From a plasmid, in the NCBI RefSeq assembly GCF_055900595.2, contig NZ_JBVWEU010000003.1: a stretch of DNA of 64,000 nt; one strand, written 5' to 3'. The position numbers and the translations under genes were made by a program. The notes beneath the pieces are model-generated. The model worked only from the letters and a program-made list of their open reading frames with translations, did not search any database and was not told where the DNA came from. Of this stretch, positions 2,879 to 14,436 are shown piece by piece; the first letter of the stretch is position 1, and every line of letters starts with the position of its first letter.

Positions 2879-3220
2879 AATCGCACAGTCAGTGTTGAAA
2901 TTAATGATGTCACGCATTTTCCCGGCGGATACACAAACCATCCCGGCCAGTACCGGCGGCATCGTAATCAACGTCTGCGGGCTGTGCAATGCTCTTTTTG
3001 CTGATTTAAGATAAAGTTATTACAGCCCCTGACGGAGACGAAAACAACGGCAGACAATATACGGGAAATATAATCAGACCGTTTTAATATTATTTCCAGG
3101 AACGCGACGAAGTCAGGCAGATTTATATATTTCTGGCCGGGCTGACATTCCGGATTGGTGTATATAATAATACGTTTGTGATATATTTATAATCGGTTTT
3201 ATTATGTTGCCGGGGTATTT

Positions 3221-3844
3221 ATGGCCAGGAATCAGGAAAAGAAAACGCCCGTCATTGTGGTGAAAAAACGTCGCGTTATTTCACCTCCTGTCGTCGATAA
3301 AACAGAGACTGTCATTCCGCCTGTACCGGAAGTGGCGGTACCACCGGCAGCTGCTGATGCGCAGCTGCCAGCCCCCATCCCGGATGCGTCTCCTGCGCCT
3401 GCTGCCGTCGGAAAGAAAAGGAAAGGAAGACCACCACGCAGGCTCCTCAGAGAGCACTGGACACGGGAGTTCACCGACCAGTGCATGGAAAAGGTCAAGG
3501 CAATTTTCCCGCATCTTCGCGCTGAAGGCGGCGGTTTTCTGCCTCTCAGGGTCGGTATCTCCCGCGATATTACTGCCTGGCTGGCTGAGCACCCTGAAGC
3601 CGGACTCACCCGGGATGAATGGGACTGTGCCGTATCCTGTATCACCTCCCGGCGTGTCTATCTGTTGCGTACCGCTGTCACCGGTGCCACCCGCTATGAC
3701 CTCGATGGTAAGCCTGCCGGGCAGGTTTCTGAGGATGAGGCAAAAAATGCTCAGCGCTGGCTGGCCATCCGGGACCGCCGGTGGGAGAAAAAACAGGCCG
3801 CTCTGGCCGGGGCAACAGGCGGGGAGAATACGACCGCAAAATGA
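3221..3844 (+). CDS. FinO/ProQ-like RNA chaperone domain protein (tentative)
   Basis: 207 aa; Pro/Ala-rich N-terminus with basic KKRKGRPPRR patch, then a C-terminal domain that resembles FinO by pattern; family assignment is from memory only. Confidence 0.4.
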   Translation: MARNQEKKTPVIVVKKRRVISPPVVDKTETVIPPVPEVAVPPAAADAQLPAPIPDASPAPAAVGKKRKGRPPRRLLREHWTREFTDQCMEKVKAIFPHLRAEGGGFLPLRVGISRDITAWLAEHPEAGLTRDEWDCAVSCITSRRVYLLRTAVTGATRYDLDGKPAGQVSEDEAKNAQRWLAIRDRRWEKKQAALAGATGGENTTAK

Positions 3845-3947
3845 CTCAGCTCCCGGCCGGGCAAGCCCGTCACTCTCCGACCGCCGAACCGCAGGTTGTC
3901 ATTGACTGGCTGGCCAGAAGCTGGGGCTGGTTGCCCGCGCCATGCTG

Positions 3948-4931
3948 TTACTGTTTACGGTGCTGATTCCCTTCGCCGTAAATTTGACAATCTCCGCGCC
4001 CGGGGTGCGGAGATTGTCGCTCGTTATATGGTTTGAATGCCTGTTTTTGCTGTTTCATTTCATTTATCAAAAAATCAGTAAATGCTCTTACTTTGGGGGA
4101 CAATTGCCTGTTAGTCGGCCACATTATCATTAAGTCTCCAAAAGGGGCCATGAACTCGGTCAACACGGGATATAATTCACGTGATTCTAATGCATCATGA
4201 GCAACATATATGGGAAGGTGGGCCAGACCTAACCCATTTACTGCTGCATATAACCCCGCGTATGTGTTATTGAAAATGAAGTTTTGAGGTAGTGTTATAT
4301 TTTTATATGGTGGAATGAATGACCATGGAGCGATCTTTCCATTAGATGGATATTTAAAATGAATACAGCTATGTTCTGATAATTCCGATGGGATTTGTGG
4401 AGCGCCATATCTGTCTAAATAGGAGTAACTACCACATACAACGAAATGTTGCTTCCCTATATATCTGCTTACTAACCTTGAGTCTACGGGATTACCGCTT
4501 CTTATTGCTATATCTATACCTTCTTTTATGATATCCACAACATGGTCTTCAAAGTCAATATCTAAATGGATTTCAGGATATAATAAATTAAACTTTGATA
4601 TTAACGGCATTAATAGTTTATGCCCAAATATATGAGGTGCTGTGATGTGCAAGGTTCCCCTGGGAGTACACATATTTGATGAAATGATTTCTTTTGCACT
4701 ATATAGTTCATCTAATATTAAACAGCATCGTTCATAAAACAAGAAACCATTTTCTGTTAAACTAATACTTCTTGTTGTTCTATGGAAAAGTCTTGTTCCA
4801 AGTTCATCTTCCAGCTTTGATATACTTTTTGCAATAGCGGAGGGAGATAGCCCAAGAACTCTGGCAGCTTGTGCGTAGCTATTATGTTTTACCGCATATA
4901 CAAATGCGGTTATACCTTGGAAACCCTTCAT
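3948..4931 (-). CDS. LysR-family transcriptional regulator
   Basis: N-terminal HTH (YAQAARVLGLSPSAIAKSISKLEDELG…LFHRTTR) plus ~300-aa co-inducer domain; divergent from the adjacent operon; AT-rich codon usage. Confidence 0.85.
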   Translation of the reverse strand: MKGFQGITAFVYAVKHNSYAQAARVLGLSPSAIAKSISKLEDELGTRLFHRTTRSISLTENGFLFYERCCLILDELYSAKEIISSNMCTPRGTLHITAPHIFGHKLLMPLISKFNLLYPEIHLDIDFEDHVVDIIKEGIDIAIRSGNPVDSRLVSRYIGKQHFVVCGSYSYLDRYGAPQIPSELSEHSCIHFKYPSNGKIAPWSFIPPYKNITLPQNFIFNNTYAGLYAAVNGLGLAHLPIYVAHDALESRELYPVLTEFMAPFGDLMIMWPTNRQLSPKVRAFTDFLINEMKQQKQAFKPYNERQSPHPGRGDCQIYGEGNQHRKQ

Positions 4932-5053
4932 GATAACTAATATCTGGATTAGTGAAAAAGAGTCATGATTATAATGACTGAATTTGATATTTACAATGGG
5001 GGGAGGGGTAATAAAATCAAATCGCCAGTAATATGATTTCTCTGTAAATAGTA

Positions 5054-5906
5054 ATGGTAGGTATATTTATGAGTTACATGCCCAAGAAAATTGAAGGGGC
5101 TTCTGTTGATGAGCTTGTGCTAAAAGGGGTTAAGCATATTATTAATAATGGCGAGAGAATATCCTCAAGAGCTGGAGGGGCTATTCAGGATTACGGAGTT
5201 ATATATGTTTTGTCCGATCCCCTAAACAGAGTTCATTCCTTGAGAAACGGAGCTATGAGGTATTTTGCAAGAGAGTTGATTGCCTATTTTTCAGGGAGTC
5301 TAAAGGTTGAGGATGGATTGGCTAAGGCATCAAAGTTTTGGGCATCGCTTGCAGATGAGAACGGGAATATAAACTCAAACTATGGATACTATGTGTTCCA
5401 TGAGAAAATAGATAAATATACAAATCAATATAATTGGGCTAAATGTGTCTTGTTAAAAAACAAAGATACCAGACGAGCCATAATCAATATAAATCAGGTT
5501 CGTCATAAGTCTGACACGAAAGATTTTCCCTGTACTGTAAGTATTCAGTTTTATATTAAAGATAATGAGTTGTACTGCGAAACTAATTCTCGAAGCACAG
5601 ATATTATAACAGGATTGCCATATGATATGGGATTTTTTTTCGTTTGTTCATGAGTTAATGTGGAAAGATCTTATCGAGAATGGATTGGAAGATTTGAAAC
5701 TTGGACCAACTATAATGAAAACAACATTTACTCAGATTTATGATAAAACAATAAATAAAGCATATGAAATTCTGAATAATGAATGTAATGATCTTAATGT
5801 TATAAATATGCCAAGTGTAATATCTGCTCAGGATACTTTAAATGATATAATGTCAGGAAGTTCGAAAACGGATGTTGTTAAGTGGATATATAAATATGCA
5901 GAGTAA
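5054..5906 (+). pseudogene. Thymidylate synthase-family enzyme (ThyA / dNMP C5-hydroxymethylase-like), split by a +1 frameshift in a T8 run near 5633-5640
   Basis: ORFs 5054..5653 and 5622..5906 together align with ThyA: DTRRAI versus DSRR, FPCT versus catalytic PCH, GLPYDMGFFSFVHELMW versus GLPFNIASYALLVHMM. Seven T's would restore a single ~280-aa frame. Confidence 0.7.
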
Positions 5907-6438
5907 AAAGAAAATATTCTTAACATCAAACAATCCAGCTAAAGTAGAAGCTGTCAAAATAGTTTGTTCTAAATTATTTGATGTTTTTTCTATCAAGCAT
6001 GAGGATATAGCGTCAGGTGTTAGTGATACTCCATTTACAGATGATGAGGCTATTTTAGGATGTTATACAAGAATTAATTCATCTGAGCATAATTTAAGTG
6101 AGCATGTGGATTACATTATTGCATTAGAAGGATTGATAGAGAAAAAATCATTTGGACAATTTGTTTATGGATGGGCTGTTATAAAGGAAATGGAAAGTTC
6201 GAGTTTTTTTTATGGATGTAGTGGGAAAGTTTATTTGCCAAATCGTGTTATGCAAAAGATGTCTTCCCAGAAAAGATTGTCTGATGTTGTTCTTGAGTTG
6301 TATCCAGGAACAAGTGCTGATGAGTTAAAGTTGATAGGAACGAATGGTGTATTGACCGGTGGACTATATACGAGAGCGATGGAGTTCGAGACAGCTTTAT
6401 TGTGTGCTTTCGGTTCTATGATGACAAGTAAAGTTTAA
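5896..6438 (+). CDS. YjjX-like non-canonical purine NTP phosphatase (inosine/xanthosine triphosphatase family)
   Basis: Aligns along its length with my recollection of E. coli YjjX (NNPAKVEAV; SGVSDTPF; YGWAVIKE; C-terminal GVLTGGLYTRA). Start taken at the internal ATG (MQSKKK). Confidence 0.6.
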   Translation: MQSKKKIFLTSNNPAKVEAVKIVCSKLFDVFSIKHEDIASGVSDTPFTDDEAILGCYTRINSSEHNLSEHVDYIIALEGLIEKKSFGQFVYGWAVIKEMESSSFFYGCSGKVYLPNRVMQKMSSQKRLSDVVLELYPGTSADELKLIGTNGVLTGGLYTRAMEFETALLCAFGSMMTSKV

Positions 6439-6453
6439 AAAAAAGGTGATATT

Positions 6454-7734
6454 ATGTTATTTAAAAAAGTAAATTTTCTTGATCATCATGATATGAGCTT
6501 TAGAAGAGGTGATATCCGTGTGATGGGTAATATGATCGTACAAATAGATGATGATCTGCAACCTATTGGAGATGAAGAGTTTGTTACATTGGATCATATG
6601 ATTGTTTTACCTGGGATTGTAAATGCACATCTACATCCAAGTAAGGAGATATATGGATGTTTATATGAATCAATGAACATAAATGATGTTCTTAACTCTG
6701 TTCATAAAAACAATAAAATGGAAACATCTGATGTGCAGTTTTTGTCTTCAACTAAAGCGTTAGTAAATGCATTAAAGAAAGGTGTTACAACATTAGGGTT
6801 ATTTACTAGTAGAGTTGATAGCGATTATGTTGCTGCTAAATGTGTTGGTGGGCGTTATGTTATAAATTTTTGTCAGAGTAATTACTGGTGCGCTGATGGT
6901 GTTCCTCCTGAAAGAATAGAGATCAGAGATATTATTAAAAACTACGATTTATATAGTAAACAAAAAAATGATTCTAAGATAATATTCTCAGCTGCAACAG
7001 CTTCTGAGTTATCTGCTGATGACCAATTGATCAAAAAATGTCATGATTATGCAGCAAGTAACAATTCAAGGTTTTTTATCCACATACATGAAGGTGCTGA
7101 ACAGGTTGCAAAACATAAATTACATTTTAATGAAAGTGGCATTAGTCGATTGTTTAGACTAGGGGTTTTAGATGAATATACAACTCTAATCCATGCAACT
7201 CATCTCTTGGATAGTGATCTTGATATTATTACCAGATCTCACTGTAATATAATTCATTGCCCTGTGAGTAATAGCTTTGTTACAGCGGGAACAATGCCAT
7301 TAAGAAAAATGATATCAGTAAATAGATTTGTTGGATTGGGTACTGATGCAGCTATGGTTAATCCAGTTAATGACATTACATTTGATGCACTTTTTGCTCT
7401 ATATCATCATGGTGACAGAAATTCTAACTTGAAAGTATCTGCCAGTGAAATAATAAATATGATCACATTTAAAGGAGCTGGAGCATTAGGATTGGATAAT
7501 ATAGGACTAATTAAAGCTGGTTATAAAGCAGATCTTATTTTTTTTGACTTGGAGAATATTGATGGCGATTATATAAATACGCCCGTATCTATATTGAAAA
7601 TGTTGCATAAAGAAACACCTATACATGTAATGGTTGATGGCAAGTTTATTATATACGAACATATGTTCGTGAATTGTAATTTTAATGATGAGCTTGAAAA
7701 ATACGCTTCTTTAAAAAAAGAGATTGTGAAATGA
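6454..7734 (+). CDS. Metal-dependent amidohydrolase-superfamily deaminase (cytosine/guanine/MTA-deaminase-like)
   Basis: 426 aa with N-terminal HxH metal motif (VNAHLHP) and downstream HATHL, HCPVSN, GLGTDA motifs typical of nucleobase or nucleoside deaminases. Confidence 0.75.
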   Translation: MLFKKVNFLDHHDMSFRRGDIRVMGNMIVQIDDDLQPIGDEEFVTLDHMIVLPGIVNAHLHPSKEIYGCLYESMNINDVLNSVHKNNKMETSDVQFLSSTKALVNALKKGVTTLGLFTSRVDSDYVAAKCVGGRYVINFCQSNYWCADGVPPERIEIRDIIKNYDLYSKQKNDSKIIFSAATASELSADDQLIKKCHDYAASNNSRFFIHIHEGAEQVAKHKLHFNESGISRLFRLGVLDEYTTLIHATHLLDSDLDIITRSHCNIIHCPVSNSFVTAGTMPLRKMISVNRFVGLGTDAAMVNPVNDITFDALFALYHHGDRNSNLKVSASEIINMITFKGAGALGLDNIGLIKAGYKADLIFFDLENIDGDYINTPVSILKMLHKETPIHVMVDGKFIIYEHMFVNCNFNDELEKYASLKKEIVK

Positions 7735-8339
7735 AAAATGTTGCATTTATTTTTTCAGGGAGAGGTAGTCTCGTTACAACTGTTTTGGATGCTATTAGAG
7801 ATAGTAAGACACAATCCAGATTATCCTTAATGATTACAAATAATGTCGAGTTTGATGAGAAATTTACCCCTAAGGGTGTTGATTTGGTTGTTTTAGACCG
7901 GAATGAGTATGTGAAAAGGAATGATTTTGAGAAAAAGATAATATTTGAGTTGAAAAAAAGAAATATTAGCTTAGTTATTCTTGGAGGTTTTAAATTCATT
8001 TTTTCAGAAAAATATGTTGATCTTTTTGGAAACATTACAATAAATACACATCCATCATTACTTCCTGCTTTTCCTGGAGATAAGGCGCAACAAAGGGCTT
8101 TAGCTAAAGGAGTTATATATACTGGTGCAACAATTCATTTTATAAATGAGCATGTTGATGATGGACCTATTATTGACCAAGAGGTTGTCAGGGTTGAAGA
8201 GGGTATGACGGAGTATGAGCTAAAGGAACAAATTATTGAAGTTGAAAAGATAATGATTTACAGATCTGTTAAGGCATTTCTCGACGGAAGATTATATTTA
8301 AAAAACAATCAGGTTATATATGGGGTTGATGATGTATAA
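7731..8339 (+). CDS. PurN-like formyltransferase (GAR transformylase fold)
   Basis: 202 aa; N-terminal FIFSGRGS, NTHPSLLPAFPG (Asn/His catalytic pair) and DDGPIIDQ (catalytic Asp) match the PurN family; ATGA overlap with the upstream gene. Confidence 0.8.
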   Translation: MKNVAFIFSGRGSLVTTVLDAIRDSKTQSRLSLMITNNVEFDEKFTPKGVDLVVLDRNEYVKRNDFEKKIIFELKKRNISLVILGGFKFIFSEKYVDLFGNITINTHPSLLPAFPGDKAQQRALAKGVIYTGATIHFINEHVDDGPIIDQEVVRVEEGMTEYELKEQIIEVEKIMIYRSVKAFLDGRLYLKNNQVIYGVDDV

Positions 8340-9519
8340 GATCAAAAATGATATACTTGCAGCTAGTTGTGTTGCCAGTATTCTGTTTGTGGCTATTATA
8401 TGTTTAGGATTGTCACTGGCAATATTACCCTTGTTTGTGAATAAAATATTACACTTGTCGCCTTTATTCGTTGGAGGAGTTATCTCTGTTGAGTCGATCT
8501 CTACATTGTTATCAAGAGCATCTTCTGGACGGTATTCAGATAAAAATGGCCCCAAAAAAGGAATGATTGCTGGTCTTACATTGATTGTTTTATCTGGTGT
8601 TCTTGTTTGTATATCTTTTGTTCTTAAAGAGAACGTTATTGCTTCATATATAGTGCTTATTATATCACGTATTATTATGGGGGTTGGTGAGAGTTTGGTT
8701 TTTACATGTAGCGGCACATGGCCTATAGGACTGGTTGGCAGGGAACATGCCGGGAAAATAATGTCATGGGTGGGGATTGCTATGTTCATGGGGCTGGCTT
8801 TAGGAAACTATATTGGTGTCTGGTCATTCTATAAATATAATATTATGGTGTCGGCCATTAGTATTACATTGTTTCCATTATTAGGGTTTATTATTGTCTG
8901 TATTGTCAGAAGTGTTCACTATCATCCCGATGTTATTTCTCCATCAATTGTTTATGGCATAAGAAAAATATGGAGAGCAGGAACAGGTTTTGCTCTCGCA
9001 AATATAGGATATGCATCAATCACCACATTTTTAGTTTTGCTTTTTATCGATAATGACTGGGGGAGATATAGTGCTCTTGGTTTATCTCTTTTTGGTATTG
9101 GGTATGTTACTTCCCGCTTAACAATAGGATGGGCGGCCGATCATGTAGGGTTAAAAACAACAATATTTTCACTTGGTCTTGAAGCTTTAGGATTATTATT
9201 TGTTGGTTTGTCAGTTAATATGTATCTGTCTATGTTTGGGGCTTTCTTAACAGGCTTCGGATTATCAATGGTGTATCCACTGTTGGCATTACCTGCAATT
9301 AAAAACATGCCAGAAGAAAATATTGGATTTGCAATTAGCCTTTATGAATCATGCTTTGATATTGGCATACTCATTTCCGGTTTTTTAGGCGGTCTGATTG
9401 TATCTTGCTTTGGGCTTCAATATATATTTTACTTTTCTTTTATATGTTGTCTGATCGCGATTCCTCTTTCTGTTATGGCATATCAGGTATCATCCACGTT
9501 AAATAAAGAATGCAGATAA
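8320..9519 (+). CDS. MFS transporter (likely efflux)
   Basis: 399 aa, about 12 predicted hydrophobic helices with glycine-rich loops; overlaps the purN-like stop, so probably co-transcribed. Confidence 0.8.
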   Translation: MGLMMYKIKNDILAASCVASILFVAIICLGLSLAILPLFVNKILHLSPLFVGGVISVESISTLLSRASSGRYSDKNGPKKGMIAGLTLIVLSGVLVCISFVLKENVIASYIVLIISRIIMGVGESLVFTCSGTWPIGLVGREHAGKIMSWVGIAMFMGLALGNYIGVWSFYKYNIMVSAISITLFPLLGFIIVCIVRSVHYHPDVISPSIVYGIRKIWRAGTGFALANIGYASITTFLVLLFIDNDWGRYSALGLSLFGIGYVTSRLTIGWAADHVGLKTTIFSLGLEALGLLFVGLSVNMYLSMFGAFLTGFGLSMVYPLLALPAIKNMPEENIGFAISLYESCFDIGILISGFLGGLIVSCFGLQYIFYFSFICCLIAIPLSVMAYQVSSTLNKECR

Positions 9520-9529
9520 ATCGGACAAC

Positions 9530-9793
9530 TTGTATGCTGCCAGGATGTTGAAATACTTCTGCTGTGACTGCCAGCACGGTACATTGTACGAAGGGACTCG
9601 GGGGGATACTGTGATGTTGCATGAGGATTTTCAGGAGCTTGAGCAGCCGGGGCCGGACAATGTGCAGGAATTTGAAGAGAAACGGCGGGATGAACTCAAC
9701 CTGCTCTATGTGGCGGCCACGCGGGCCCGGAAGACGCTTGTTCTGAACAGTGTACTTCGCCAGATTCTGGCAAACAGTCGCTTCACCGGATGA
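9530..9793 (+). pseudogene. C-terminal remnant of a UvrD/Rep-like helicase
   Basis: 87-aa ORF ends with the helicase C-terminal motif LNLLYVAATRARKTLVL; no N-terminal ATPase domain upstream; composition jumps back to GC-rich exactly here. Confidence 0.45.
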
Positions 9794-10054: not shown

Positions 10055-10349
10055 ATAAAAACAGCGGTTACGAAGCAAAATGCATCGTGAGAGTACATTC
10101 AGTTATTTTTTGTTATTTTGTTTTTTATAAAACAAAATAACAGGCATGGTTAATGCGAGGTGTTTTATAGAAAAATGCCCTCAGAGGAGATAGTGAGGGC
10201 ATAAAGTAAAAACCGATTCGATGGATAGTCTGTTAATTATAATTTTAAATGGAAATTTTAAAACATGCAGAAACAGGATACAAACCGAAAGATAAAAAAT
10301 GTGATACAGAAAACAGAATATCACTATATCACGGTCAGCATGATGGCTG

Positions 10350-10561
10350 TCATTCTGCTGATGAGCAGTTGCTTAATACAGGTCTGTCATTCCCTTCTAC
10401 CAGATCGGCTTTTTTCCCTTTTGTGTACAGTTTATATGAGTAGTTTTTGTTGATGGCTTCGTAATTCGCTCCGGAGGCCATTTTCATAAGCTGCATGGGT
10501 ATCATCTCATCCATCTGATTTATCACTGCATAGGAGTTTCCGGCAGTGGTGTTGATATAGA
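10350..10561 (-). pseudogene. mliC-like lysozyme inhibitor gene, C-terminal part (displaced by the IS66 insertion)
   Basis: Minus-strand translation from the target duplication gives …YINTTAGNSYAVINQMDEMIPMQLMKMASGANYEAINKNYSYKLYTKGKKADLVEGNDRPVLSNCSSAE*, with the MliC-type SGA.Y motif; in frame with the N-terminal part at 13261-13395. Confidence 0.6.
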
Positions 10562-10591
10562 GTAAGCGGCTCGTCAGAACCGTATTGATAT

Positions 10592-12163
10592 TTACTGAGA
10601 GCTCAGATCAACTTTCCAGGGCAACAGATCGCGTACCCGGTTTGCCGACCAGTCCTGGATATGTTCAATGACGTAACGCAGCCACTTTTCTGGCTCCACA
10701 TTGTTCAGACGGCATGTGCCGATCAGCGAGTACAACACCGCCGCATGTTCACCACCGCTGTCGGAACCCGCGAACATCCAGTTTTTCCGGCCTACGGCCA
10801 CTCCCCGTAAGGCGTTCTCTGCGATGTTGTTGTCGATTTCCACCCAGCCATTACTGCAGTACACGTTCAGTGCATCCCACTGTTTCAGCAGGTATGCGAA
10901 CGCTTTTGCCGTATCTGAGTGACGCGACAGTGTTTTCATCTGAGTCTGTATCCAGTCGTACAGTGACTGCATCAGTGGCGCAGCTCTGGCTTTTCTTGCC
11001 GCCAGACGCTGTTCTGCTGAACATCCCCGGACCTCTGCCTCGATTGCATACAGTTCACCGATACGCTGCAGGGCTTCCGTGGTGATATCGGTAGGCGCTC
11101 TTGCATGCACATCGTGGATTTTTCTCCGGGCATGGGCCATACACGCGGCTTCCGTTATTCTGCCGGATTCGTATAACGCCCGGTAACCACCGTAAGCATC
11201 GGCCTGAAGCACACCGCTGTAACCGGCCAGGTGATTCTGTGGATGGATACCTTTCCGGTCCGGGCTGTACGCGAACCAGACCGCCGGGGGCATCTGTGAA
11301 CCGGTGTTACGGTCATCACGGACGTAAACCCACAGCCGGGCAGTTCTTGTTTTACCACTGCCCGGCTCCTGGACCGGAACGGGGATATCATCCGCATGGA
11401 CTTTACCGGGCATCAGCACATACTGGCGCAGCACGTCATACAGCGGCTCCAGCAGTTCAGCAACGGCACTGGTCCAGCGCCCCAGCGTGGCGCGGCTCAG
11501 TTCCACGCCCTGACGACGGTATATTTCTGACTGGCGGTATAACGGCAGATGGTCTGCATACTTCCCGGTGACGATATGAGCCAGAAGCCCCGCTCCGGCA
11601 TAACTGCGTGCAATGGGTTTTGAAGGTACTGGTGCCTGCACGATATGGTCGCACCGGCAACAGGCCAGTTTCGGACGTTGTGTTTCGATAACCTTAAAGG
11701 CGCTGCTGATAAGCTCCAGTTGCTCTGACACATCACATCCCAGAGAACTGAGTTCGCCACCACAAGCCGGGCAGCATTCCTCTTCCGGCCGGATAACCCG
11801 GGATTCACGGGGAAGTGCAGCCGGTAACGGTTTACGGGCTGAAGACTGGCGCAGGGAAGATGGCAGTGCCGGGTCATATTGCTCACCCAGTGTTTCCGCC
11901 ATTTCTTCCTGAAGTGCGCTGATTCGCTCCTGTGCTTCCTGTATCTGTCGTTCGGTTTTTGCGCGAAGTTTTTCTGAGCTTTTACCGAACTGCATGCGCT
12001 GCAGTTTTGCAACCAGCGCCTTCAGCCGGTTGATTTCAGAAGCATAAGCCGCCACCCGCTGTGAGAGCAGGCAATTGTATTCGGCCATCTGGCGGATGGT
12101 GTCCTGTTGCGCCTGCAACAGTGCCCGCAGGCGGGCGTTCTCATGAGCAAGTGAGGTGTCCAT
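10592..12163 (-). CDS. tnpC: IS66-family transposase TnpC
   Basis: 523 aa with an N-terminal coiled coil, a Cys cluster (CPACGG…CCRCDH) and a DDE-type core characteristic of IS66 TnpC. Confidence 0.9.
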
Positions 12164-12182
12164 ATCCTCACTTTACAACGGG

Positions 12183-12530
12183 TTATATGCGGATTCCAGC
12201 GCGTTCCGTTCGTTTTGGATGTTTCCAGTCGATGCCCTCAAGAAGCATGGATAACTGGGCCGGAGTAAGGTGCACCTTGCCGTCACGGGTGACCGGCCAG
12301 ACGAAGCGGCCCCGCTCCAGGCGTTTGGTGAAGAGGCACAGTCCGTCGCTGTCAGCCCACAACACTTTTATCTGGTCACCCCGGCGTCCGCGGAAGATGA
12401 ACAGGTGTCCGGAGAACGGGTCATTCTTCAGGACGTTCTGAACTTTTGAGGCCAGGCCGTTAAAGCCATTTCGCATGTCGGTGATACCGGCAACCAGCCA
12501 GATACGCGAACCTGCAGGGAGAGATATCAT
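12183..12530 (-). CDS. tnpB: IS66 Orf2 (TnpB)
   Basis: 115 aa with the conserved IS66 Orf2 signature (WLVAGITDMRNGFNGLA…GHLFIFRGRRGDQIKVLWAD). Confidence 0.9.
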   Translation of the reverse strand: MISLPAGSRIWLVAGITDMRNGFNGLASKVQNVLKNDPFSGHLFIFRGRRGDQIKVLWADSDGLCLFTKRLERGRFVWPVTRDGKVHLTPAQLSMLLEGIDWKHPKRTERAGIRI

Positions 12531-13207
12531 CAGTGGCTGCTCCCTTTCATTTCGCGGATAAGTGTCTGTAATAAGGCCGGTGTCAGTTCACCTTTCAGCC
12601 TGAGAGTTCCGGCCGGCAGAACCAGCTCACAGCACAGACTGTCGGACGGTGTATTTATCTGCTCTGGTTCCTGTGCCGGAGCCGGGATTTTATTATCCGG
12701 CTCCGGCGTTAACGTCACGGGAAGCAGTGCAGGCATATTTTTTCCGGAAGGCAGCAGGCCACCTTTCCGGTATTGATGGCGCCAGTTGAAGAGCAGGTTA
12801 TCGTTGATTCCGTTTTCACGGGCGATCTGCGCCACACAGGCTCCGGGCTGCAGTGACTGCTCCACTAAGGCGATTTTAAACTCATAAGGAAAATTAGGCC
12901 GCCGGGGACGTTTTTTTACCACCGGGACTTCGGACATAACGGTGTTTTCAGTAAGTACGACAGGTACTGTGGAGGCACTCCCGTAAAGACGGGCATCAAG
13001 TTCCCGCTCCGACATACCTGCGGGAAGAGGCCATGAAAGGCCAGCTTTGCGGAAGCGCACGAACATACCACAAACTGTTGATTTTGGTACGCCCAGGCGA
13101 CGTCCGGCCACAATCCGTGGTAAATGTTCTTCAAAGTGAAGACGTAAAGCTTCGGTGATCCAGGTCCGGTATTCCATACGATAGTGTCCATTAAAAATGA
13201 TGGACAT
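12530..13207 (-). CDS. tnpA: IS66 Orf1 (TnpA-like) with N-terminal HTH
   Basis: 225 aa; sits first in the three-gene IS66 arrangement and overlaps Orf2 by one base. Confidence 0.7.
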   Translation of the reverse strand: MSIIFNGHYRMEYRTWITEALRLHFEEHLPRIVAGRRLGVPKSTVCGMFVRFRKAGLSWPLPAGMSERELDARLYGSASTVPVVLTENTVMSEVPVVKKRPRRPNFPYEFKIALVEQSLQPGACVAQIARENGINDNLLFNWRHQYRKGGLLPSGKNMPALLPVTLTPEPDNKIPAPAQEPEQINTPSDSLCCELVLPAGTLRLKGELTPALLQTLIREMKGSSH

Positions 13208-13395
13208 TATTTTTGTGGAGCCGGAGGAAACAGACCAGACGGTTCAGATGAGGCGCTTACGATATAGACAACCTCCATTGTCTTGTTTCCATCACAGACA
13301 TAGGCTTTTTTTGAGATTTCTTGTGTGGCAGCGGAGGCTGTCATACAGGAGCAGGCGAGAATGAGTGCAAGGACGGCTGAAGAATATTTTTTCAT
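13207..13395 (-). pseudogene. mliC-like lysozyme inhibitor lipoprotein gene, N-terminal part interrupted by IS66
   Basis: Signal peptide with lipobox (LILACSCMTA) then YVCDGNKTMEVVYI; the original frame leaves at the target duplication and the ORF runs on into IS66 sequence. Confidence 0.6.
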
Positions 13396-13848
13396 AACAA
13401 CTCCTTCTGTAGGTTAAAAAGAGAGGTGCTTTGCCGGAGTTATATTAATAATTCATTCATCAGAGAAAACTTTTTTTTGTTACGGCAATAATAATGAGAC
13501 AATTCCAGGTAAGCCCGGTGCCGTTCTACGGTTGCACCGGGAGGGCTGGAACTCAGTGCGGAGATTTTTTACCATCCTGGTGATATAAATGATCATGTGC
13601 TGTTTTGCGGTCCCTGTATATGCCCATTAGACTGGCCCCCTGAATCTCCAGACAACCAGTATCACTTAAATAAGTGATAGTCTTAATACTAGTTTTTAGA
13701 CTAGTCATTGGAGAATGTAATGAACGCATCCCAACTATTTGAGTATGAAGCCGGGGTTGGCAGGAAAAGTGTGGAGCCTCGCAGATTTCCGGCATCATAG
13801 TGCCCAATACGGGATGCATAAAGCTCCCTCAGACTGGAGACTCCACAA

Positions 13849-14436
13849 ATGAAATATACACCGGTTGGCGTTGATATCGCAAAACATGTCATTCAGGTTC
13901 ACTTCATCAATGAGCACACAGGGGAAGTGGTGGATAAGCAGGTTCGTCGTCAGGATTTTCTGGCGTATTTCAGTAACCGCGAACCCTGCCTGATTGGCAT
14001 GGAAGCTTGTGGAGGCTCCCTGCACTGGGCGCGTGAATTAACAAAGCAGGGACACAAAGTCCGATTGTTGCAGGCTCGCTTCGTTAAAGCATTCGTCATG
14101 GGCAATAAGAATGACGTGATGGATGCGCGAGCTATCTGGATGGCGGTACAGCAGCCAGGCAAAGAAATCGCCGTCAAAACAGAAGAACAACAGTCAATAC
14201 TGGTTCTGCACCGTTCCCGCAGACAACTGGTGAAGTTCCGGACCGCGCAAATTAATGCCCTGCACGGGAGGTTACTGGAGTTTGGTGAAACCATTTCTTT
14301 TTCAGTCTGTATCGCAGAACTGCGTAATAATCTGAAGGAGAACTCTTCCTGGCTGGTTGCTCTCTGTGATTTCATTTTTGCACGTTTCAGGCAGTGCTGT
14401 ATTCGTCTCTGGATACAGATCCGATCATCTTCCTGA
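13849..14436 (+). pseudogene. IS110-family transposase, truncated or frameshifted
   Basis: The first ~150 aa (MKYTPVGVDIAKHVIQVHF…GMEACGGSLHWAREL…) match the IS110-family DEDD N-terminal domain; the ORF stops at 195 aa with a non-conserved tail. Confidence 0.55.

Follow-up and report, generated by a model that had tools for sequence, protein, structure and literature searches.

An ISCro1-like IS66-family insertion sequence within a PliC-type lysozyme inhibitor gene on an IncK2/Z-type Escherichia coli plasmid

The inserted element and its target site

The stretch of plasmid DNA that we have analysed (64 kb in full, called the window here) carries a complete 2,699-bp insertion sequence of the IS66 family, ISCro1-like and lying on the minus strand (10562-13260), which splits a gene for a lysozyme inhibitor, pliC, that extends from 10350 to 13395. 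These are exactly the coordinates that had been proposed for the element and for the divided gene in a sequence-only reading of this DNA, and the limits of the element are backed by its ends, its open reading frames (ORFs), a profile search and copies found in databases. Its three consecutive genes, tnpA-tnpB-tnpC, were taken from the ORF list and all of them are on the minus strand. The first, tnpA (12530-13207), encodes an IS66-like accessory protein of 225 aa (NCBIfam NF038385, 286.9 bits, cut-off 150); the second, tnpB (12183-12530), encodes the 115-aa IS66 accessory protein TnpB (NF033819, 129 bits, cut-off 50); and the third, tnpC (10592-12163), encodes an IS66-family DDE transposase of 523 aa (NF033517, 476.9 bits, cut-off 180). 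The tnpA stop codon and the tnpB start codon overlap at 12530, and the start of tnpC lies 19 nt past the tnpB stop. All three proteins exceed the curated cut-offs of these NCBIfam equivalog models, which confirms the assignment to the IS66 family.

The terminal inverted repeats, located by sequence computation and assigned to no strand, lie at 10562-10583 on the tnpC-proximal side (GTAAGCGGCTCGTCAGAACCGT) and at 13239-13260 on the tnpA-proximal side, where the reverse complement is GTAAGCGCCTCATCTGAACCGT. They are imperfect, as had been noticed before, with 19 of 22 positions matching, and both begin with GTAAGCG. This start is general to the inverted repeats of IS66-family elements (ISfinder/TnPedia). 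The same beginning (GTAAGCGTCC...) is seen in an inverted repeat of the IS66 family that PMC12888890 quotes. The element is complete, with its three ORFs intact, and is probably active.

A plasmid search found DNA of this element in 3,453 records, and its identity to copies labelled 'IS66-like element ISCro1 family' by NCBI PGAP is 96.4% at the nucleotide level over the full 2,699 bp. The nearest copies, 99.2-99.8% identical and labelled 'IS66 family' only, are those of plasmid pCh101, which is the nearest of all (99.8%), and of three E. coli chromosomes. We considered the pCh101 copy as a donor or as a product of the same event and rejected it, as it adjoins the umuDC genes (umuC is annotated under the match) and is not bordered by an 8-bp duplication. 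The three chromosomal copies were fetched and proved to be located at unrelated sites, each of them being 2,699 bp long, having the same termini and being flanked by its own perfect 8-bp duplication (GATTCTGC, ACTCATAA and TTTAAAGG). Both the ends of the element and its habit of duplicating 8 bp are therefore independently confirmed.

At the site studied here, the 8-bp sequence GATATAGA forms a perfect direct repeat that abuts both ends of the element, with the left copy at 10554-10561 and the right copy at 13261-13268 (neither is assigned to a strand; both were identified by reading the sequence and by comparison with the empty site described below, which has a single copy). These are its only two occurrences on the plus strand of the 64-kb window, and identity of an 8-mer at two preset positions would arise by chance with a probability of ~1.5e-5. 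The target-site duplication suspected earlier therefore directly adjoins the inverted-repeat ends and coincides with them exactly. The insertion point is after codon 45 of the 112 codons of pliC, which is read on the minus strand.

The interrupted gene and its predicted product

Removing positions 10562-13268 in silico, that is, the element plus one copy of the duplication, restored a 339-bp ORF on the minus strand. The restoration had been anticipated by the sequence-only reading with a length of about 113 aa; the reconstruction holds and the length is 112 aa. The 5' part of the gene (codons 1-45, 13261-13395, minus strand), defined from the ORF list and the in silico excision, begins with an ATG at 13395-13393 and encodes the signal peptide MKKYSSAVLALILACSCMTASA followed by ATQEISKKAYVCDGNKTMEVVYI. 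Its frame now runs into the insertion sequence and reaches a stop at 13207, giving a truncated fusion ORF of 62 aa (13207-13395) that consists of the signal peptide, 23 residues of the mature protein and 17 residues derived from the element. The 3' part (10350-10561, minus strand; ORF list, excision and alignment) comprises the duplicated codons, codons 46-112 and the stop, and it holds both lysozyme-binding motifs as well as C108, the second disulfide cysteine. This part is now without promoter, native start and signal peptide.

A probable intrinsic terminator of pliC is found ~150 nt past its stop codon (10170-10202, minus strand), where a 9-bp G+C-rich stem, AUGCCCUCA/UGAGGGCAU, is followed by UUUUU. 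This hairpin was spotted by eye and is supported by folding (-15.5 kcal/mol, z = -5.3); our consensus scan missed it because it limits loops to 8 bases and 10 unpaired bases separate the stem arms here. Between 10000 and 13800 the same terminator scan returned only chance-level terminator-like matches inside the insertion sequence, and a consensus scan of both strands over this interval found no sigma-70-like promoter. The hairpin and its U-run suggest that pliC was a monocistronic unit before the insertion, and polar effects on the neighbouring genes are therefore unlikely.

The restored protein belongs to the MliC/PliC family, as the sequence-only reading had proposed. It matches the Pfam MliC domain (PF09864, E 3.5e-12, residues 32-103), the NCBIfam equivalog NF010363 'c-type lysozyme inhibitor' (159.6 bits, cut-off 127) and the PDB entry 3OE3 (E 4e-41, 89 aligned residues, 23-111), which is PliC of Salmonella Typhimurium (St-PliC; PMC6624275), and no MliC structure was among the matches of the PDB sequence search at E<=1. 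Because of this strong match to 3OE3, together with the lack of any MliC structure at that threshold, the protein is, as judged from its sequence, an orthologue of the periplasmic PliC and not of the lipoprotein MliC. The conserved regions of the family are SxSGAxY and YxxxTKG (PMC6033465), and they correspond here to MASGANY (residues 70-76) and YKLYTKG (residues 85-91). The first serine of SxSGAxY is replaced by methionine exactly as in Salmonella PliC, so that MASGANY is identical to the motif of St-PliC. Moreover, among 18 homologues C34 is invariant and C108 nearly so, and the two conserved cysteines of the family form a disulfide that stabilises the barrel (PMC2267010). Given the close match to St-PliC, the restored protein would be expected to inhibit c-type lysozyme (hen egg-white).

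The way in which this protein would be processed deserves closer attention since the sequence-only reading had taken it for a lipoprotein with a lipobox cysteine. The formal pattern is indeed there, as I12-L-A-C15 fits [LVI][ASTVIL][GAS]C in this allele and residues 11-15 (L-I-L-A-C) are preceded by a short lysine-rich n-region and a hydrophobic segment. A conserved lipobox with an invariant cysteine at +1 marks the MliC proteins, which are lipoproteins, and the domain recognised in the restored protein is the one that Pfam calls 'MliC', so that an MliC-like product anchored to the membrane through Cys15, instead of a soluble periplasmic PliC, has to be considered. However, Cys15 is not conserved: alleles of 86-95% identity have T, S, G or V in its place, Salmonella PliC has S, and the cysteine is not kept in the homologues of Salmonella, Proteus or Morganella. 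What is conserved is a signal-peptidase-I site of the AxA type (ASA/A, A20-S-A22/A23), which in the alignment falls where mature St-PliC begins in the crystal construct; cleavage after A22 would leave a mature protein of 90 residues. The periplasmic fraction was the source from which Callewaert et al. (2008) purified the PliC of Salmonella, and they predicted for it a 24-aa Sec signal peptide and a mature protein of 90 aa (PMC2267010), the same length as predicted here. The absence of any MliC lipoprotein structure at E<=1 points in the same direction. All these data make processing by signal peptidase I and a soluble PliC the likelier outcome, and a membrane-anchored product doubtful; lipoprotein status is unproven and probably wrong, the cysteine that suggested it being absent from the closest alleles. 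The reading of the insertion itself is the same whichever way the protein is processed.

A variant of the lipoprotein reading concerns the history of this allele, which among the plasmids searched is common only to the window and to plasmid pLS45-2. Sister alleles read LILTSTC or LILAGTC where this one has LILAC15, and it is conceivable, if rather improbable, that substitutions in the signal peptide created a functional lipobox (LILAC15) that was later lost here to the IS66 insertion. If this were true, a soluble PliC of the periplasm would have been turned in nature, on a conjugative plasmid, into an MliC-like lipoprotein anchored in the membrane.

Origin and consequences of the insertion

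The search for an uninterrupted allele in related plasmids, suggested by the sequence-only reading, was successful. When the flanks were joined into a 1,400-bp query, its full length was matched at 99.9% identity by plasmid pLS45-2 (NZ_CP095450.1), a conjugative IncK2/Z plasmid of a chicken E. coli isolate. Across the junction, pLS45-2 agrees base for base with the joined flanks and contains GATATAGA once, and the restored 112-aa protein shows 100% identity to the product encoded there, WP_086795528.1, which is annotated as 'c-type lysozyme inhibitor'. The pLS45-2 locus is thus a natural empty site. Furthermore, from the start of repA onwards the window and pLS45-2 are collinear on both sides of the insertion sequence, the 10.6 kb that precede it being 99.4% identical and the 6.5 kb that follow it 99.6%, in agreement with the plasmid location attributed to the gene.

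The best explanation of these observations, to which we assign a probability of about 0.95, is a single transposition of an IS66-family element, with target duplication, into pliC on an IncK2/Z-type plasmid. In the proposed course of events, an intact ISCro1-like element (2,699 bp, with tnpA-tnpB-tnpC on the minus strand) would have transposed into the pliC gene of an IncK2/Z-type E. coli plasmid, behind codon 45 of its 112 codons, and GATATAGA, the 8-bp target, would have been duplicated in the process. The product of this gene was probably a periplasmic c-type lysozyme inhibitor of the PliC type. A simple and evolutionarily recent transposition is indicated by a duplication free of mismatches, by the intact ORFs of the element and by flanks that are 99.4-99.9% identical to pLS45-2, and nothing in the sequence speaks against this reading. 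As the insertion parts the promoter and the signal peptide from both lysozyme-binding motifs, it would have abolished the function of pliC. The claim of a clean insertion inactivating a plasmid-borne lysozyme inhibitor is therefore supported, with the functional loss being deduced from the sequence.

The gene is uncommon on plasmids, as it was found in 46 of 72,556 PLSDB records, all of them from Escherichia (34 full-length and 12 partial, the latter with breakpoints unlike the one described here), and in Salmonella, Proteus and Morganella homologues that are 55-65% identical lie on the chromosome. We also searched for the identical insertion with a query that included the element and both flanks (10150-13650 of the window): none of the PLSDB records covered at least 80% of it, and the insertion was not found among 5,426 complete RefSeq E. 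coli genomes. One RefSeq E. coli record reached 84% coverage and was discarded, as it represents a different arrangement in which a chromosomal pliC homologue is intact and a 95% ISCro1 copy follows downstream of it.

The gene halves could, in principle, have been joined to the element by recombination between insertion sequences, by some other rearrangement or by misassembly rather than by one simple transposition. The element is found in great numbers in E. coli, on plasmids as well as on chromosomes, and the near-identical copy in pCh101, which has no target-site duplication, indicates that such rearrangements occur. However, none of these processes fits a perfect 8-bp duplication placed exactly at both ends of the element, which an assembler would not create, nor flanks that rejoin base-for-base into an empty site existing in nature; in addition, no second copy of the element was found in the 64-kb window and the backbone to the left and right of the element is collinear with that of pLS45-2. 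Rearrangement or misassembly is thus effectively refuted by the duplication, the empty site and the collinearity, and we regard it as the least credible of the explanations. Scarcely more probable is a regulatory or adaptive role of the insertion, for instance through an outward promoter of the element driving the 3' fragment or the downstream DNA, or through selection for the loss of pliC. Insertion sequences near genes can change transcription, and there is a precedent in ST131, where an ISCro1 insertion upstream of afaA reduces afaA transcription (PMC8764528). The 3' fragment, however, has no signal peptide, so its product could not reach the periplasm; the scan of both strands between 10000 and 13800 gave no sigma-70-like promoter; and the terminator-like hairpin stands behind the gene, with no co-oriented gene for ~250 nt downstream. 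Selection for gene loss might be suggested by the independently truncated copies on other plasmids (the 12 partial records of 46, with their different breakpoints), but neutral decay in an accretion zone rich in insertion sequences would explain repeated truncation equally well.

A single transposition into pliC therefore remains our reading, and as such the event is a routine, textbook IS66-family insertion in which the element, the target and the mechanism all match what is known. In terms of annotation, 13261-13395 and 10350-10561 are best described as one IS-disrupted PliC-type pseudogene and not as two hypothetical ORFs. The insertion also provides a private marker that sets this IncK2/Z plasmid apart from the near-identical pLS45-2. 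Finally, any additional lysozyme tolerance that pliC might confer in this poultry- and human-associated plasmid lineage would be lost here.

Comparison with known systems

The closest known counterpart of the interrupted gene is the WP_086795528.1 allele on pLS45-2, which shares with it the protein, the 339-bp gene, the target site and the plasmid backbone, and differs in lacking the insertion sequence and in having one GATATAGA instead of two. Salmonella enterica PliC (SEN1802/STM1249; 3OE3) is ~63% identical to the restored protein over the full length, and both have a mature length of 90 aa, an AxA cleavage context, two cysteines and identical motif regions (MASGANYEAI and YKLYTKGK). The differences are that the gene described here is plasmid-borne in E. 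coli and split by an insertion sequence whereas that of Salmonella is chromosomal, and that the signal peptides are unlike each other, with two cysteines (C15 and C17) present in this allele only. The MliC proteins of E. coli (YdhA) and Pseudomonas aeruginosa have in common with the restored protein the PF09864/COG3895 domain and the SxSGAxY and YxxxTKG pair, but they are too distant for a PDB match at E<=1, and a low identity between PliC and MliC proteins has been reported (PMC2267010).

With regard to the element, it resembles ISCro1 of the IS66 family in its length class, in the tnpA/tnpB overlap, in the position of tnpC 19 nt downstream, in the inverted repeats starting with GTAAGCG and in the 8-bp target duplications. 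ISCro1 was first named in Citrobacter rodentium, and the isoform rule requires a nucleotide identity of 95% or more to the reference sequence in ISfinder. The element found here differs by ~3.6% from the copies that PGAP assigns to the 'ISCro1 family'; it may be an isoform of ISCro1 or an insertion sequence with a name of its own, and we describe it as ISCro1-like.

Surroundings of pliC on the plasmid

On the plus strand, at 13849-14436 of the window, we have found a truncated ORF of 195 aa coding for an IS110-family transposase, which matches the NF033542 profile with 147.6 bits, covering positions 2-156 of the 343 in the profile. The collinear E. coli IncK2/Z plasmid pLS45-2 (NZ_CP095450.1), in which pliC is uninterrupted, also carries this truncated ORF. 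Thus, pliC is located in a zone where IS remnants have accreted. Furthermore, a short plus-strand ORF at 9530-9793, annotated in pLS45-2 as an ATP-binding domain-containing protein, gave no matches better than weak ones (E of 1.7e-4 at best), which fall in the C-terminal portion of helicases of the RecB/AddA type; it is probably a gene remnant.

By collinearity with positions 3956-9526 of the pLS45-2 record, an accessory cluster of the plasmid backbone occupies approximately 3950-9520 of the window. According to the pLS45-2 annotation, it starts with a divergent LysR regulator, followed by genes for a thymidylate synthase, an inosine/xanthosine triphosphatase, an amidohydrolase, a formyltransferase-family protein and an MFS transporter. 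The cluster could be a small operon for nucleoside-analogue biosynthesis or resistance.

A high-copy E. coli repeat of ∼130 bp is also present in the region upstream of pliC, at approximately 13625-13760, which is ∼235 bp from the start of the gene. It was detected in 4,682 of the 5,426 complete RefSeq E. coli genomes, where it occupies 3 places per genome in the median and 41 at most, and it resembles the left end of IS2 (TAGACTGGCCCCCTGAATCTCCAGACAACC...), broken off after ∼90 bp. The 1,400-bp empty-site query, made of the rejoined pliC flanks, matched >5,000 plasmids, probably because it includes this repeat fragment.

The closest copy of the inserted element

The nearest copy of the ISCro1-like element is found in pCh101 (NZ_CP127318.1), another IncK2/Z plasmid, at 3001-5699 of the fetched locus L002; it is 99.8% identical (6 SNPs) and adjoins umuDC, with umuC annotated under the match. 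We inspected both ends of this copy and found no 8-bp duplication, the flanks being GCTGAATA and GGCAATAC. As three places in pCh101 match the element, recombination between copies or adjacent deletion is a likely explanation.

pliC in other replicons

An intact pliC homologue (WP_000760916.1) was found in an E. coli chromosome (NZ_AP045791.1; L003, 2501-5936) with an ISCro1 copy ∼400 bp downstream, the pair being flanked by a YadA-like adhesin gene on one side and by sugar-utilisation genes on the other. Therefore, pliC travels in chromosomal, IS-associated islands too. Moreover, truncated pliC copies of independent origin are present in further plasmids (PLSDB matches H96-H99). One set of them keeps only the 5' 152 nt, and the annotated protein P0069 combines a partial PliC match (92% identity over 45% of the restored protein) with an integrase-core Pfam domain (PF13683). 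These truncated copies and P0069 indicate that pliC has repeatedly decayed through IS activity.
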